This document shows positions 1 through 6,049 of a DNA stretch of 64,000 bases, piece by piece (the stretch's first letter is position 1; each line of letters opens with the position of its first letter). A model generated the notes under the pieces. The model worked only from the letters and a program-made list of their open reading frames with translations. It was not told the DNA's origin and ran no database searches. Location of the stretch: the IMG/VR virus record IMGVR_UViG_3300031730_000002, positions 1-64,000 of that record. The stretch is one strand, 5' to 3'. The position numbers and the translations under genes are program-made. The DNA comes from a virus.

Positions 1-66
1 GGTGCGCACCACGTAGCGGCGGCCGCGCGGCGTCGAGATAGGCTGCAGGTTGATGGCGTGTGCCAT
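1..66 (-). CDS. 5' part of a small early gene running off the window (MAHAINLQPISTPRGRRYVVRT...)
   Basis: AAGGAG RBS upstream of ATG at 66 on the - strand; frame open to the window edge. Confidence 0.6.
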   Translation of the reverse strand, partial: MAHAINLQPISTPRGRRYVVRT

Positions 67-92
67 GTCGTTCTCCTTTGAAGTGTTGAGGG

Positions 93-296
93 TCAGCAGC
101 CGAGACGCACCACAGGCACGTCCCACGGCTCGACATCGATCTGGCCGTGAGGCGTGAGGTACGCCTCACGGTGCAGGCGCAGTGTAGGGATCACTGCGGC
201 TTCGGATGTGGCAAGCACGACGAATCGCGTGACTGCCGGTTTGCGCTGCCGAGGCTGCAGCGGGTCGGTGATGGTGACCAGCCACAGGCCGGCCAT
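93..296 (-). CDS. hypothetical protein, 67 aa
   Basis: Start overlaps the upstream stop (TGATG coupling); co-oriented with neighbours. Confidence 0.6.
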   Translation of the reverse strand: MAGLWLVTITDPLQPRQRKPAVTRFVVLATSEAAVIPTLRLHREAYLTPHGQIDVEPWDVPVVRLGC

Positions 297-526
297 CAGC
301 GGGTCGAGCGGGCGCGGATCGCCGCGCTGATCTGCGCCAGGGCGATGACGGCTCGCAAGTCGCGCTGGTGCGAGGGCAAGGCCGCGGCGTTGCGCTCGCG
401 GCGCACCTCGCTGATGGAGACGCCGCGGGTGGCGGCTTCCTTGGCCACGGTGGCGGCCTTGGCGGGGGCCTGGTTGGTCGGCTTCACGATGCCGGCGGCG
501 ATGAGTTGGGCACGGGTCTGGCGCAT
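296..526 (-). CDS. hypothetical basic Ala-rich protein, 76 aa (MRQTRAQL...)
   Basis: AAGGAG RBS before ATG at 526; shorter than the ORF-track call. Confidence 0.65.
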   Translation of the reverse strand: MRQTRAQLIAAGIVKPTNQAPAKAATVAKEAATRGVSISEVRRERNAAALPSHQRDLRAVIALAQISAAIRARSTR

Positions 527-575
527 GGCAGGGGCTCCTTCAAGTGTGCGCACTGGGCGCGGTTGGGTGAAACGG

Positions 576-941
576 TTATCCACAGGCAGAAATTGGTTAG
601 TGGGCACTTCAGAGGCAAAATCGCGTTTCTGTTTTGCTCAGGTGATATCCGAAAGGTATTGCAGGTAATACCCTTAGGATATCAACGGCCTTTCGAGAGG
701 GCGCGGACGACGGAAGCGGTCGAAATAAGGGCTAGGCAGGCGTTCGTTACGTGTAACGTATATCCTTCGTCACTTTTGGACATCATCCTCTTTTTGGACG
801 AGGAAAAAGTGATCTGGAAAATCACTTTTTCGTAGTTTCAAAAGAGGGCGCCGTTTTTAAATCACCTTCGGGTATTACGGGTAGTACTGGGTTGTTATTG
901 TTATGAAGCGAGCACGGACAGGGTGATGACGGTTATCAACA
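576..941. promoter_or_regulatory. AT-rich intergenic region with a DnaA-box match and several inverted repeats (candidate origin or regulatory region)
   Basis: TTATCCACA at 576-584, TTATCAACA at 933-941; IRs at 643-684, 746-759 and 803-831. Confidence 0.35.
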
Positions 942-1044
942 GGCTTGCGAGGGTCGCAGCTTGCTCGAATGGCATGGGTGTCAGGGCCGGATAGAACAGG
1001 CTTGCGGCTGCGAGGATCGCAGTGCAGAAGTGGCGGGGGCGCAT
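901..1044 (-). CDS. small hydrophobic (membrane) protein, 47 aa
   Basis: MRPRHFCTAILAAASLFYP...LASLLITVITLSVLAS; follows the 1050-1184 ORF. Confidence 0.4.
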   Translation of the reverse strand: MRPRHFCTAILAAASLFYPALTPMPFEQAATLASLLITVITLSVLAS

Positions 1045-1049
1045 GGGTG

Positions 1050-1184
1050 TTAGGCCACGCGCAAGCCGTCGCGCCAGGCTTGCGGCCGGTAGCCGTGCCG
1101 GCTCAGGTAGTCCATGGGCGCGAGGCTCGTTGCGGGCAGACGGCGCTCGAACCCGTCGAAGGTCCAGAAAACGATCGTGTACAT
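1050..1184 (-). CDS. hypothetical protein, 44 aa (MYTIVFWTFDGF...)
   Basis: GGAG RBS upstream of ATG at 1184. Confidence 0.55.
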   Translation of the reverse strand: MYTIVFWTFDGFERRLPATSLAPMDYLSRHGYRPQAWRDGLRVA

Positions 1185-1214
1185 GGTGAGGGCTCCAAAA
1201 TTTCGAGGGGCGCG

Positions 1215-1329
1215 AGTTGACATAACGTGCGGCGTGCGCATCGATCAAACCGTTATGTAGTTGGGTTCACAGCGACGCCGCGCCTATGGCGGTCGTGTGG
1301 AATCGGAAAAGTTGTCAGTTGACATAACG
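1215..1329. repeat. 13-bp direct repeat AGTTGACATAACG (1215-1227, 1317-1329) plus inverted core CGTTATGT (1251-1258)
   Basis: Read directly from the sequence; intergenic. Confidence 0.7.
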
Positions 1330-1334
1330 CATGA

Positions 1335-2105
1335 GCATGCGCAAACCGCAGGGCTTGCGAATGCTCGCGCATTCGGGAATGCAGCGGCGCGCCTGGTTAA
1401 CTTTCGTTCCAGCGGTGCGCGGCTGTTAGGGGGCAAGGACCAGTGTTTTCGGAGTCCTTGTCTCGGCATTCCTACTAGATAGCACTCACGCGAGAAGTAC
1501 CAGACAAACGAGTCTCGGTGCTCTTGGTGCGTATAGACATCCGCGACGATTCATAGCCTTGAGAGCGTGTCTCAGCTGGATAAGGTGGTTCTGTCGTGTG
1601 TATCACTCAGGCAGAGTCTTTGTCCTGTTGCGGCGCTCAGGTCCGCAGGGTCTTTCATTGGCCGGGATGTTCACTCACTAGATGCAGCGTGCGCCTATAC
1701 GGTCCGGGCGACGTGGTTTCGGGTGAGTGCTTTCTAGTCGCACCTGCATCGATCGTTCACACGTCTAATGCAGCGTACTTGCGTGACTAGGTTTGAAGTA
1801 GTCAGCTAATCGGTGGCTGTAGAGATTCTGTCCTAGTCCTGTTTGCAGGGTTGTTAGTCAAGCATCTAAGCGGATAGGCAAAGATGAAACGAGACGAACG
1901 CGCCCGCTAGTAAGACTAGCGTTAGGTCTACAGCACATTGTTAGAGAGCGTCTAGGGGGTTAGGTGCGCCGATTAGAGGGACAAACCTCTAGCGGGTTAC
2001 CTCACTGCCTAGTCTGCTATGGCGCGGCCGTTAGGCCGGGCTTTTAAGGTGCAGAGCACTAGCTCGGAGCTAGTGCTCTGCACCCTACTGGCGTAGGGTG
2101 CAGCG
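1335..2105 (-). ncRNA. candidate large structured non-coding RNA (~750 nt; ends approximate)
   Basis: No credible ORF; many local hairpins and nested long-range helices; GNRA loops on the - strand; 12 CTAG in about 600 nt. Confidence 0.6.
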
Positions 2106-2109
2106 GGGT

Positions 2110-2793
2110 TTAGTGCGTTAGCGCGAGTGCCGCGCTCTGCGACACTTCGCGGGCTTGCACGTCGATGACATCGGCCTGCGGGGTGACATCCGCATAGAAC
2201 TCCGAAACGAGTGCATCCAGCTGCAGGCCTGCGTCGATGTTGCCCGATGCGAGCGCGGCGCGGATGAACGCGAACGCGTCAGCCAGTGTGAGGGGGATCG
2301 GCTGCGCGGCGGCCTTGGCGGCCTTCTCTGCAGCCTTGGCGGCCTTTTCCTTGGCGGCCTTGGTAGCGGCGGCCTTTTCCTTGCGCTCTTCGCTGGCCTT
2401 GTCAGCGGCAAGCCCGGCCCGGGTGCATTCGGAGTCGAAGGCTTCTGATGCGATAAGTGAGAGTTCAGCCGCGCGCACCTCTGCATCGGGCTTTGCCATC
2501 GGCTGCGCTGCATGCTGCGCTACTGCGGCTGTATAGGCGCCCTGCATGACAGTGAGCACGCGGGCAGCTTGCGCGGCGGCGAGCTTGCGCTGGGGCTTGC
2601 TTCCTTCCAATTGGCCTTCGATGCTGGCCAGTGAGGTGAGCACCTCGATTGTGTCGTTCAGGTTGCGCTTGTTGCCATCCTTCAGGATGTAGACCAGTGT
2701 TTGCGTGAGTGCTGCGAACGCCTGTTCGTATTGCACCTCACGGGCGCCAGCGAACGCGAGAATGGCGGGAATGGGCTTCAATTGTGCGGACAT
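2110..2793 (-). CDS. hypothetical early protein, 227 aa, with an Ala/Lys-rich helical segment
   Basis: GGAG RBS before MSAQLKP; AKAAKEKAAKAAEKAAKA low-complexity stretch. Confidence 0.75.
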   Translation of the reverse strand: MSAQLKPIPAILAFAGAREVQYEQAFAALTQTLVYILKDGNKRNLNDTIEVLTSLASIEGQLEGSKPQRKLAAAQAARVLTVMQGAYTAAVAQHAAQPMAKPDAEVRAAELSLIASEAFDSECTRAGLAADKASEERKEKAAATKAAKEKAAKAAEKAAKAAAQPIPLTLADAFAFIRAALASGNIDAGLQLDALVSEFYADVTPQADVIDVQAREVSQSAALALTH

Positions 2794-2888
2794 GGTACGG
2801 ACTCCAGTAGAGGGGGTTGCATGCGCTAGGTGAGGCATGGCAGGGCGTGTGCACTGCGGTATAGGCTCATGCCTATACCGCATGGCAC

Positions 2889-3071
2889 TCACCCCATGAG
2901 TGCGAACATGAGGCGACCGAGCCACGAGAGGGGGCGCGGTTCAGGGTAGCGCAGGGTATATGGGGTGCGCTGGCGCAGAGGTGCGGGTTGTGTGAACGTG
3001 GCGCCGATGCGTGGCGCATTGTGTTCAGCGTATGCCACTAAGGCCGTGTGTTCAGCGTAGTCGAATCGCAT
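2889..3071 (-). CDS. hypothetical protein, 60 aa (MRFDYAEH...)
   Basis: AGGAG RBS before ATG at 3071. Confidence 0.6.
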   Translation of the reverse strand: MRFDYAEHTALVAYAEHNAPRIGATFTQPAPLRQRTPYTLRYPEPRPLSWLGRLMFALMG

Positions 3072-3492
3072 CGCGTTACTCCTATTTGTTGGGCCAATGA
3101 CAACGCCACCGGCACAGACCCTATCGCATACGCTGTGCCAGCCCTGTTTAGGCATTAAAACAACGCTATTCTGACCATTTACGTCACATTGGGGGCCATG
3201 CCAAGACGCAAAACGTCAGCTCCATGACAAGGAACGTCACTTTGCGTACATGTTGACACTGTTTGTTACATGCACGCTGTCCTGGTGGCCGGGGCAAGGA
3301 CAAGACCGGGCCGGCGTTCGGGTCGGAGTGACAGGCCTTGTCCTGTTTCCCTGACAGGGGCGCGGACGGGTAGGCTTTCTTGGGGGAGTCGGAGGCCTGG
3401 CCCTACCCAACCCCTCCCGCCATATGAAATATTTTTCCAAACTTTCCTACACACCCCGTATTTTTGTCACCCTACGTGCCACAATCCGTCGC

Positions 3493-3792
3493 ATGGAGAT
3501 CTCGCGTAAAGACCTGGCCGCCCTGCAGGCCCGCCGCATCACCAAGACCGCGCTCGCGGCCCATCTAGGCGTCAGCGCCACCTACCTCATGCGCATCACG
3601 CCACCGCTGCCGCCCGGCCCCGTGGCCGCGCAGCGGCGCGCGAACTCGACCTTCGCCGAGAGCCGGAAAGCGTTCCGCGCCCGACTGGCCAAGCAGGTAC
3701 TCGCCGGCAGCAAGTCGATAACCAAGGCCGCGGCCGAAGCCAAGTGCTCCGAACGAACCATGTACAGGTATCTATGCAAATCGACGAAGTGA
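3493..3792 (+). CDS. helix-turn-helix DNA-binding protein (two HTH-like segments)
   Basis: ITKTALAAHLGVSATYL and ITKAAAEAKCSERTMYRYL. Confidence 0.7.
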   Translation: MEISRKDLAALQARRITKTALAAHLGVSATYLMRITPPLPPGPVAAQRRANSTFAESRKAFRARLAKQVLAGSKSITKAAAEAKCSERTMYRYLCKSTK

Positions 3793-3971: not shown

Positions 3972-4389
3972 CAAGTCGCCGCTGATTCCGCGGGTGCCCT
4001 TTTCTCCGACCACGCAAAAGCAGGTCGAAGATCTGGAGGACAAACTCGCAGAGATGGAGGATGAAGCCGATATGGTCGATGCAGACCCTGGCAAGGAAAC
4101 CCTCATCTCGATCGATATGCTGGCCGAGACCGTGCAGCTATACCGCAGCACCAAACGCTTACACCGTCGCGCGATCCAATTTGACAGCAAGGCACCGCTG
4201 AATCAGCAGGCACAGGTGGTCAATAGCCTCGGCGGCTTGCTGAAGTCTCTCGCTGCCTTGCAGATTCGCCTGTATGACAGCGAGCGGCTGAAGAAACTTG
4301 AAACCGCACTCATTGAGATGCTGAGCGACTTGCCGGTGGAGCAGCAGAACACCTTTTTGGCCCGCTATAAGGAATTGACGGATGTTTGA
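3952..4389 (+). CDS. terS: probable terminase small subunit
   Basis: 145-aa helical protein overlapping the start of the large terminase; synteny only. Confidence 0.55.
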   Translation: MSLTSPDKSPLIPRVPFSPTTQKQVEDLEDKLAEMEDEADMVDADPGKETLISIDMLAETVQLYRSTKRLHRRAIQFDSKAPLNQQAQVVNSLGGLLKSLAALQIRLYDSERLKKLETALIEMLSDLPVEQQNTFLARYKELTDV

Positions 4390-6049
4390 GGGTCACTTCG
4401 AGCGCATTCGCGCGGCTGTGCAGAAAGAGTATGGCCTCGGTACTGTGCCGGAGTGGATCTGCAAGCACACAAAGCTGGGTGGCAAGCCCTACAGCTACAA
4501 GAATCACGAGTTTCAGCTGCAGATTCTGCGTGATCAGAGCCCTGAGAAGATCATTCGCAAGTGCTCACAGGTCGGTTTGACCGAGTTGAGCTTCCGCGAG
4601 GTGCTCGCGATACTGCGAATCATCGACGGCTTTACCGCGATTTACACCATGCCGAGTGCCACTGACATGGCAAAAGTGGTGCAAACACGCCTCGATCCGA
4701 TCGTGACAGGCAGTGCTGACCTGACATATGCGCTCTCTTCGAGCGTGGATTCGGCCATCGTGAAGCAGTTTGGCCTCAGTTTTCTCCATTTGTCGGGTAC
4801 TTTTGGCCAACAGCAGGCCATTTCAGTGCCTGCGGACATGGTTGTGCACGATGAGGTCGATTTCAGCAATTTGAAGGTGCTGACGACCTACGAGTCACGA
4901 CTCACGCACAGCAAGTACAAGATGCGGCGCGAGTTCTCGACTCCGACGCTGCCAGGGCGCGGGATCTCAGCCCGATTCGATCGATCGCGCCGCCATTTCA
5001 ATATGGTGAAGTGCCATCGCTGCAATCACTGGTTTTTGCCCGACTATTACCTGCATGTGAGGGTGCCGGGGTACGACGACGACCTGAAACTGATCACCAA
5101 CCGCAATCTGCACCACTACGACTGGCGGCATGCGGCGCTGCACTGCCCGCACTGCGCTGGAATTCCGAGCTTGCAGCACGAGAACCGCAACTGGGTGCTC
5201 GAAAATCAGAATGAGAACTACACCGCGGCAGGGTATGCGGTGTCCCCATTCGACGCGCCTAACATCATCTCGACTCCGTTCCTGGTGGAGAAGTCGACAA
5301 AGTACGAGCGCATTGCCGACTTCGTCAATTTCAATCTCGGGCAGCCGTATGAGGACGCGACAGTAAGCCTGACCGACTCATTCCTGCGTAGTTTGTTCGT
5401 GCCAGGCAGCCCACCAACGAGTAGTGCCAATTTCATGGGCATCGACATGGGCGCTTTGTGCCATATCGTTGTCGGGAATGCCCAATCGACCGGCGAGTTG
5501 GTGGTTTTGCACTACGAGCGGGTGACTTTGGCCGATTTCGAGCGGCGCAAACGCGAGCTTGCGATCGAGTATCGAGTGCTTGTGACGGTGATGGATGCCT
5601 TGCCGTATACCGACATGGTAATGCGGCTGCAAATTAGCGACCCGAATTTGTTCGGTGCGATCTATCTCGACATGAAGAATATCGTCACCTATGCGGTGAA
5701 GGACCAGCGAAAAGACCCTGAGAAGGGCAAGTTGAACATCCGGCAGGTGCAAATCAACCGGAATGTGGCATTCGACGACATGGTGCAGTCGATTATTCGG
5801 CGCGAGGTGGTGTTTTTCGACCGACCGGAGAAGGACATCTTCATTGCGCACCTGTTGGACATGAAGCGGCAGACAGTATCGGACTCGAATGGTGAGCTGG
5901 TGTACAAGTGGATTAAGTCGGAGCAGGGGGACGACCACTTCATGCATGCGATGATGTATCTCTACACCGCGTGCAAGCTGCGGGCGCTGACGACGGGCAG
6001 TGCGCCGATTCAGACGCTGATTTCGAGCTTCAGGGTCAAAACCATGTGA
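4382..6049 (+). CDS. terL: terminase large subunit (lambda GpA-like)
   Basis: Walker A-like RKCSQVGLTE, Walker B VVHDEVD, FSTPT motif, CxxC pairs, nuclease MGIDMG...DDHFMHA. Confidence 0.9.
   Translation: MFEGHFERIRAAVQKEYGLGTVPEWICKHTKLGGKPYSYKNHEFQLQILRDQSPEKIIRKCSQVGLTELSFREVLAILRIIDGFTAIYTMPSATDMAKVVQTRLDPIVTGSADLTYALSSSVDSAIVKQFGLSFLHLSGTFGQQQAISVPADMVVHDEVDFSNLKVLTTYESRLTHSKYKMRREFSTPTLPGRGISARFDRSRRHFNMVKCHRCNHWFLPDYYLHVRVPGYDDDLKLITNRNLHHYDWRHAALHCPHCAGIPSLQHENRNWVLENQNENYTAAGYAVSPFDAPNIISTPFLVEKSTKYERIADFVNFNLGQPYEDATVSLTDSFLRSLFVPGSPPTSSANFMGIDMGALCHIVVGNAQSTGELVVLHYERVTLADFERRKRELAIEYRVLVTVMDALPYTDMVMRLQISDPNLFGAIYLDMKNIVTYAVKDQRKDPEKGKLNIRQVQINRNVAFDDMVQSIIRREVVFFDRPEKDIFIAHLLDMKRQTVSDSNGELVYKWIKSEQGDDHFMHAMMYLYTACKLRALTTGSAPIQTLISSFRVKTM

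Follow-up and report, generated by a model that had tools for sequence, protein, structure and literature searches.

A candidate family of large, multi-domain structured RNA in the early operon of a high-GC soil/root phage

Few RNAs of bacteria or phages exceed about 500 nt and have intricate conserved folds, and those that are understood are ribozymes, ribonucleoprotein cores or, as has recently emerged, self-assembling RNA cages. One of the large RNAs, OLE, is bacterial (Bacillota) and membrane-associated, with partners of the OapA type. On a smaller scale, T7-like phages have early transcripts that are processed by RNase III, at sites that are single hairpins of about 50 nt. Phages and prophages carry large ornate RNAs of their own, GOLLD and ROOL, which have been studied by cryo-EM (PMC12286853), and a catalogue of structured RNAs drawn from IMG/VR contains elements of 29-151 nt, each required to be present in at least three unique IMG/VR regions (PMC10690425).

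The element described here was predicted from sequence in the window (the whole stretch of DNA that was analysed, i.e., the first 64 kb of an IMG/VR virus record) and is like GOLLD and ROOL in belonging to the ~600-800 nt size class, in its many-helix ornate fold, in being phage-borne and in being without an associated coding function, but it has no sequence or structure match to either, has no tRNA genes nearby and lies inside an early operon. With OLE it shares the arrangement of a large structured RNA adjoining a small conserved protein gene, whose product is a possible partner, although here the 227-aa neighbour is of no recognisable family, and there is no Rfam match. As at the RNase III sites of T7-like phages, long perfect hairpins are found between cistrons of an early polycistronic transcript; here, however, the hairpin that would be the site borders a 700-nt covarying fold. 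The IMG/VR catalogue has the same data source and the same comparative logic, yet an element of 770 nt with no other IMG/VR copy could not have been in it.

The original prediction had been unable to place the element in a known class by eye, and that judgement held, since a cmscan of the whole window against Rfam 15 produced no relevant match at the gathering score. When the threshold was relaxed to E<=10, for positions 1000-2400 of the window and 1000-2100 of a homologous metagenome contig (L004, see below), the only matches were of miRNAs and sRNAs at chance level, on (terminal) hairpins. At that same threshold the covariance models for GOLLD, ROOL and OLE matched neither copy, no self-cleaving ribozyme (hammerhead, twister, HDV-like or others) was found on either strand of either copy, and there was no Rfam match to group I or group II introns, the element being in any case intergenic and interrupting no gene. 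RNase P, tmRNA, 6S, SRP and rRNA fragments had no Rfam match, nor did ARAGORN find a tRNA or tmRNA. From these Rfam negatives it follows that the element is not GOLLD, ROOL, OLE, an intron, RNase P, 6S or a catalogued ribozyme. It does fit the descriptive kind of a large ornate structured ncRNA (more than ~400 nt, non-coding and with covarying helices), as nine of its 28 helices covary, and we consider 1333-2104 to be a new family of large multi-domain structured non-coding RNA, known from sequence alone.

The record itself is of 85,865 bp with 61% GC and is rated 100% complete. Its ends (1-139 and 85726-85865) overlap by 139-140 bp at 99% identity, and contig L004 bridges the head-tail junction, so the genome is circular or circularly permuted and of ~85.7 kb, despite its IMG/VR label of "linear". 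Plus-strand genes, TerL (4382-6049) among them, extend from 3424 to about 36.7 kb, and minus-strand genes occupy the remainder of the genome, wrapping through position 1, with a divergent gap between the two transcription arms at 3156-3423. Counted from this gap, the element comes third in the minus-strand early arm, ~1 kb in, and the order along the minus strand is an 88-aa ORF, the 227-aa gene (2110-2793), the element, and then ORFs at 1184-1050 and 1044-901. No Pfam or PHROG families were found for these flanking proteins. The features in the immediate neighbourhood are:

2110-2793, minus strand: upstream neighbour, encoding a 227-aa Ala/Lys-rich protein that is conserved along with the RNA
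1333-2104, minus strand: the whole element, about 770 nt with 28 consensus helices
1191-1332: spacer of about 145 nt, specific to the window and missing from L004, with two exact AGTTGACATAACG repeats
1050-1184, minus strand: downstream neighbour, a 44-aa ORF that is conserved in L004

What had drawn attention to this stretch was its apparent lack of an ORF with an RBS, and a usable reading frame is indeed absent from 1333-2104: there are no ORFs of at least 30 aa in 1790-2105, and those elsewhere in the element are short and unconserved. Scans of 1-3600 for promoters and terminators gave nothing usable, i.e., no sigma-70-like promoter was found, nor were a promoter and terminator of the element's own. 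Within the divergent gap, ACGTCA occurs three times (3181, 3213 and 3234), and these copies may be regulator sites. In the spacer, the AGTTGACATAACG copies are 102 nt apart and there is also an inverted CATAACG...CGTTATG pair; the spacer may serve as an operator-like site or may mark where a small insertion took place. Searches of the genome for a reverse transcriptase (RVT_1), a tyrosine integrase and RNase III found none, and a search for a T7-type RNA polymerase gave no match, although its control likewise matched nowhere.

The phage is of a high-GC, proteobacterial-type, soil/root lineage from which sequenced relatives are almost absent. The best isolate relatives of its TerL are those of Vibrio phages, at 31% identity, and with the best of these, SHOU24 (31%), synteny is absent. 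A search of sequencing runs listed one DNA run that contains the stretch, a root metagenome that is probably its source, and no RNA runs. For the element, a distant-mode blastn search with 1200-2200 against 50,697 phage records gave no match, exact searches of IMG/VR with invariant blocks of 19-20 nt gave 0 matches, and an 18-mer search of GTDB genomes gave five matches that were all chance, sharing only a word of 18-20 nt. Scans of IMG/VR anchored on the neighbouring 227-aa and 76-aa proteins were negative, and a scan anchored on TerL found one relative (47%) on a contig that starts too near TerL to include the region. The 227-aa protein has no Pfam or PHROG matches, appears in the protein atlas in unnamed viral clusters only, and has just two relatives among 5.8 billion proteins, of which one (P0002) was found, by comparing the contigs of that run, to be from the same phage in the same sample. 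The second relative matches the ENA metagenome contig L004, whose copy of the protein has 84% amino acid identity to that of the window. Within the 227-aa gene, an Ala/Lys-rich repeat, KEKAAKAAEKAAKAAA (2312-2332), is the site of a 21-nt in-frame deletion in another assembly from the same sample, the sole difference seen between the contigs of that run and this phage, and one that is either a repeat-length polymorphism or an assembly difference.

It was a protein-anchored metagenome scan that yielded L004, whose region is collinear with the window and whose copy of the element is ~85% identical. A second contig considered in the metagenome scan, L005, which carries a partial relative (34%), had no comparable ORF-free block. 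The homology with L004 begins sharply at ~1333-1336, at the base of the last helix of the element (helix 28), and continues into the upstream gene; in L004 this terminal hairpin is followed, within about 20 nt, by the RBS and ATG of the minus-strand gene that comes next.

All of the motifs named in the original prediction were found where it had placed them, and the comparison of folding energies with dinucleotide shuffles that it had proposed showed both strands to fold far better than their shuffles (plus strand, MFE -347 kcal/mol, z -6.45; minus strand, MFE -287 kcal/mol, z -5.25; 20 shuffles each). A comparative model was built with RNAalifold on the two-sequence alignment of the window and L004 in the minus-strand orientation, and contains, for n=2 sequences, 225 consensus pairs in 28 helices with 0 broken pairs. 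In minus-strand order, 5' to 3', its features are:

2078-2103, minus strand: alternative 11-bp hairpin just past the upstream stop codon, overlapping helix 3
2048-2084, minus strand: helix 3, a near-perfect hairpin of 16-18 bp directly after the stop of the 227-aa gene
2022-2041, minus strand: helix 4, a hairpin with a C(UAAC)G tetraloop whose loop is UAAA in L004; pair probability 0.98 in both
1947-2018, minus strand: domain A (helices 5 and 6), with four consecutive double-compensatory pairs
1814-1937, minus strand: domain B (helices 7-12), an invariant outer stem GCUGUAGA/UCUACAGC, then a CUAGU/ACUAG stem and a variable interior
1781-1806, minus strand: helix 13 hairpin, with three consecutive double-compensatory pairs
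1740-1778, minus strand: helix 14, a 16-bp hairpin with a GUGA (GNRA) tetraloop, two internal U.G and one double-compensatory pair
1474-1738, minus strand: domain C, long-range helix 15 (1474-1493/1719-1738) around helices 16-24
1376-1472, minus strand: domain D (helices 25-27), with an AAC-GAAA-GUU hairpin within a 44-nt invariant block
1333-1366, minus strand: helix 28, the terminal hairpin at the 3' (minus-strand) edge, with two double-compensatory pairs and one G.U to G-C change

The covariation between the window and its one homologue, a check that had also been proposed, is extensive for n=2 sequences: across 1333-2018 there are 21 double-compensatory pairs in nine helices, often in runs of three or four consecutive pairs, and a further six pairs are changed on one side only, to or from G.U. 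In addition to the pairs noted above, domain C contributes three in helix 15, two in helix 17, three in helix 20 and one in helix 23, and domain D, where pair probabilities are 0.82-1.0 in both sequences, contributes two in helix 26. Domain C also has an invariant 11-nt loop, CGGACCGUAUA, and in L004 contains a 22-nt insertion that is itself a GCCC-UAAC-GGGC hairpin. When the 3' partners were slid by 1-3 columns, only 0-2 double-compensatory pairs remained, and on refolding, 40 column-shuffled alignments had 4.7 such pairs on average and never more than 11. The true alignment has a consensus-energy z of -15.6. Most helices were predicted independently in each sequence's own ensemble with a pair probability >0.65. 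The pattern of compensation is thus one that neither chance nor alignment bias would be expected to yield, and the sequence comparison supports the view that 1333-2104 is a real, selectively maintained, multi-domain RNA structure. Helices 1-4, 7, 16, 18, 24, 25 and 27 are invariant between the two copies and hence silent on covariation; helix 3, in which one U-A to U.G is the sole change in L004, is among those that covariation cannot test, and helices 8-12 are tentative because their pair probability is low in L004. A search for further covarying helices and pseudoknots gave only candidates of 5-6 bp, with one change each, that clash with the model, and the element is complementary to other parts of the genome at chance level only.

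Several pairings that had been drawn by hand could be traced in the model. The long-range inverted repeat was found to be longer than first drawn, with 20-nt arms (1474-1493/1719-1738) of 90% complementarity that are joined by three double-compensatory changes as helix 15. For the two nested helices the outcome was mixed, in that GCTGTAGA/TCTACAGC became helix 7, invariant in both copies, and CTAATCGG/CCGATTAG was unsupported by the homolog, where the left arm reads CTGAATGG and the right arm is unchanged. The local hairpins TAGAGG/CCTCTA (helix 6), CAAGGAC/GTCCTTG (helix 26, two compensatory changes) and CTGCAT/ATGCAG (helix 14, one) survived, and CGCTAGT-AAG-ACTAGCG did not, being broken in L004 and replaced in the model by a pairing of ACTAG with CTAGT at 1833-1839. 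The loop-bearing hairpins AAC-GAAA-GTT and GGCC-TAAC-GGCC were likewise kept, and AC-GCAA-GT is a junction in the model.

Selection could be gauged against the adjacent gene, where synonymous third positions of the four-fold type are 65% identical to L004, as against 89-91% for codon positions 1 and 2. The element has 89% identity in paired columns and 78% in unpaired columns, and its invariant blocks, of 30, 39 and 44 nt, include loops and junctions; judged from this one pair of sequences, the alignment shows purifying selection on the element about equal to that on codon positions 1 and 2 of its neighbour.

On the whole, we think it rather probable that the element is a minus-strand RNA, derived from a leftward early transcript, that is stable enough to persist and has its effect in trans. 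Such a transcript would start in the divergent region near 3156-3423 and would carry the fold between the 227-aa gene and the 1184-901 genes, and the fold might then be cut out by a host double-strand RNase at the 16-18-bp hairpin on its 5' edge. That the block does build up as a stable RNA, and that it works in trans early in infection, is a narrower proposition, for which we see the chances as evenly balanced. By analogy with other large ornate phage RNAs, it could serve as a scaffold, assemble itself into a particle, or act as a decoy for a protein of the host or the phage; the invariant blocks of 30, 39 and 44 nt and the 11-nt loop CGGACCGUAUA are candidates for its tertiary or ligand contacts. 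Trans action, processing and oligomerisation are points that we purely infer, and helix 3 and the hairpins that overlap it are possibly a processing site or a switch; neither strand has a U-tract after helix 3. A bolder idea, which we regard as doubtful, is that the element is the founder of a class of giant phage RNAs not seen before that are active in themselves, e.g., as a ribozyme or as an RNA particle that assembles itself and captures a host factor. The RNA would then be among the very first products of infection and would take over or disarm the cell, with its CUAG-rich helices and invariant loops serving as functional contacts. The element is an unrelated, added example of a large ornate RNA, from a high-GC soil/root phage lineage, and lies at the head of an early operon, where take-over and anti-defence functions cluster. 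A secondary-structure model is at hand, the boundaries are defined and the neighbour protein is co-conserved, so that direct synthesis and probing are feasible and the host is not needed.

The alternative that best survives, although we consider it unlikely, is that the element is a cis-acting intercistronic module that governs the early genes downstream of it, by way of read-through, processing, stability or translation, in versions that include a switch via the two mutually exclusive hairpins at 2048-2103 and a barrier that protects the upstream mRNA. Its position between co-oriented genes, without its own promoter or terminator, is what such a module would have, as are the conserved, overlapping alternative hairpins at its 5' edge and, in L004, its ending ~20 nt ahead of the next RBS. 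Yet known cis elements (put, EAR, leaders and riboswitches) are smaller by several-fold, a local switch is hard to square with nine covarying helices and with invariant blocks of 30-44 nt spread across 770 nt, and in the window a tolerated insertion of 145 nt separates the element from the next gene.

A separate issue, one of strand and not of function, is whether the functional RNA is instead the plus strand, which would make it an independent gene, read towards the 227-aa gene and sharing with it a bidirectional terminator in the form of the hairpins at 2048-2103. The original prediction had the RNA co-oriented with the early genes, for which context and loops speak and on which energy and wobble tests, being strand-symmetric, are silent. 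The plus strand is the more stable (-347 vs -287 kcal/mol, with 256 vs 225 consensus pairs and more G.U), but this advantage vanishes after composition-matched shuffling, when the consensus-energy z is -15.6 for minus and -15.5 for plus. Stacked wobble pairs on shared helices are 17 plus-type vs 7 minus-type, where composition alone predicts 1.6:1, and informative 1x1 sites point one each way. In domain A, one A-U to G.U change is compatible with the minus strand only. Although the strong hairpins would fall at the 3' end of a plus-strand transcript, and there is a TTGACA box at 1320-1325 in the window, the spacer that bears this box is missing from L004, which has minus-strand coding sequence in its place, and a start ~30 nt past the box would truncate the covarying hairpin 28. 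The plus strand also has no -10 element or U-tract and no conserved promoter. On the minus strand the tetraloops are GAAA, GUGA and UAAC (the last again in the hairpin inserted in L004), which we take to be of the GNRA and UMAC families; read on the plus strand, they become UUUC, UCAC and GUUA, of which UCAC is all that this strand has to offer, and it is without GNRA or UNCG loops. Unpaired positions are 35% A on the minus strand, and the flanking genes are all on the minus strand, with the last hairpin abutted in L004 by the RBS and ATG of the next minus-strand gene. The thermodynamics being symmetric, our preference for the minus strand comes from genomic context and from the GAAA, GUGA and UAAC loops, and we hold that the RNA is probably the minus strand, a plus-strand RNA being distinctly unlikely.

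Less credible still, and in our estimation improbable, is that the element is a pre-primer or origin-activating transcript directed towards an AT-rich region with DnaA boxes at ~570-945, in the manner of ColE1 RNA II or of transcriptional activation at ori-lambda. With RNA II it would share the character of a structured non-coding transcript, several hundred nt long, that points at a putative origin: the only perfect DnaA box in the genome, TTATCCACA, is at 576-584, a box with one mismatch lies in the same orientation at 933-941, and the two flank a non-coding block that has 46-53% GC, contains repeats of the AAAAGTGAT type and, on the minus strand, lies 400-750 nt downstream of the element. 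L004, too, has three DnaA-type boxes in the matching place and in the same orientation. Against this, and unlike RNA II, the element is separated from the candidate origin by ~430 nt and two ORFs, both small and conserved, an antisense partner was not found, and no G/C-rich, hybrid-forming tract or RNase H-type site was identified. The region from 540 to 945 is in its own right a candidate replication origin, with nested inverted repeats GATATCC...GGATATC (642-685) and AAAAGTGAT/ATCACTTTT repeats (770-830).

The remaining questions were whether the stretch might encode protein, e.g., with TAG recoded, and what the abundance of CTAG, pointed out in the original prediction, might mean. The 118 substitutions between the window and L004 fall almost evenly by position mod 3 (37/38/43), and the internal indels are of 1, 1, 2, 4, 4, 1, 22, 1, 1 and 2 nt. 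No frame is open across the whole element, even on reading through TAG, TGA or TAA. A conserved protein frame, whose discovery on reading through TAG had been named as a refutation, was thus not found, and, with no codon periodicity and with indels that break frame, the stretch is not coding, TAG recoding or not. Conservation above that of synonymous sites likewise excludes a decaying pseudogene. CTAG is as concentrated as had been claimed, with 12 copies in the element vs 36 in the whole 85,865-bp genome, where 0.32 would be expected at the genome-wide rate and 5.6 from local dinucleotide shuffles (P=0.004); the L004 element has 15 (P<0.0005). Eight of the 12 sites are the two arms of four CUAG:CUAG helices, and since L004 keeps 10 of the 12 and gains five, the motif is favoured and not just tolerated. 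A function at the level of DNA, whether in protein binding at CTAG, in cruciforms, in packaging or as an origin, is close to refuted, as is a protein gene that has decayed or been recoded, and we give next to no credence to either. In favour of such readings, CTAG is enriched and kept or gained in both copies, the GC of the element is lower than that of its flanks and one plus-strand frame is open for 157 codons with TAG read through. Against them, the nested helices up to 290 nt apart, the compensatory changes and the conserved G.U pairs point to RNA, and the frame-breaking indels and flat mod-3 differences exclude coding. In the genome at large CTAG is avoided, with 36 copies observed vs 116 expected by a Markov (trinucleotide) estimate, and one third of them are inside the 770-nt RNA.
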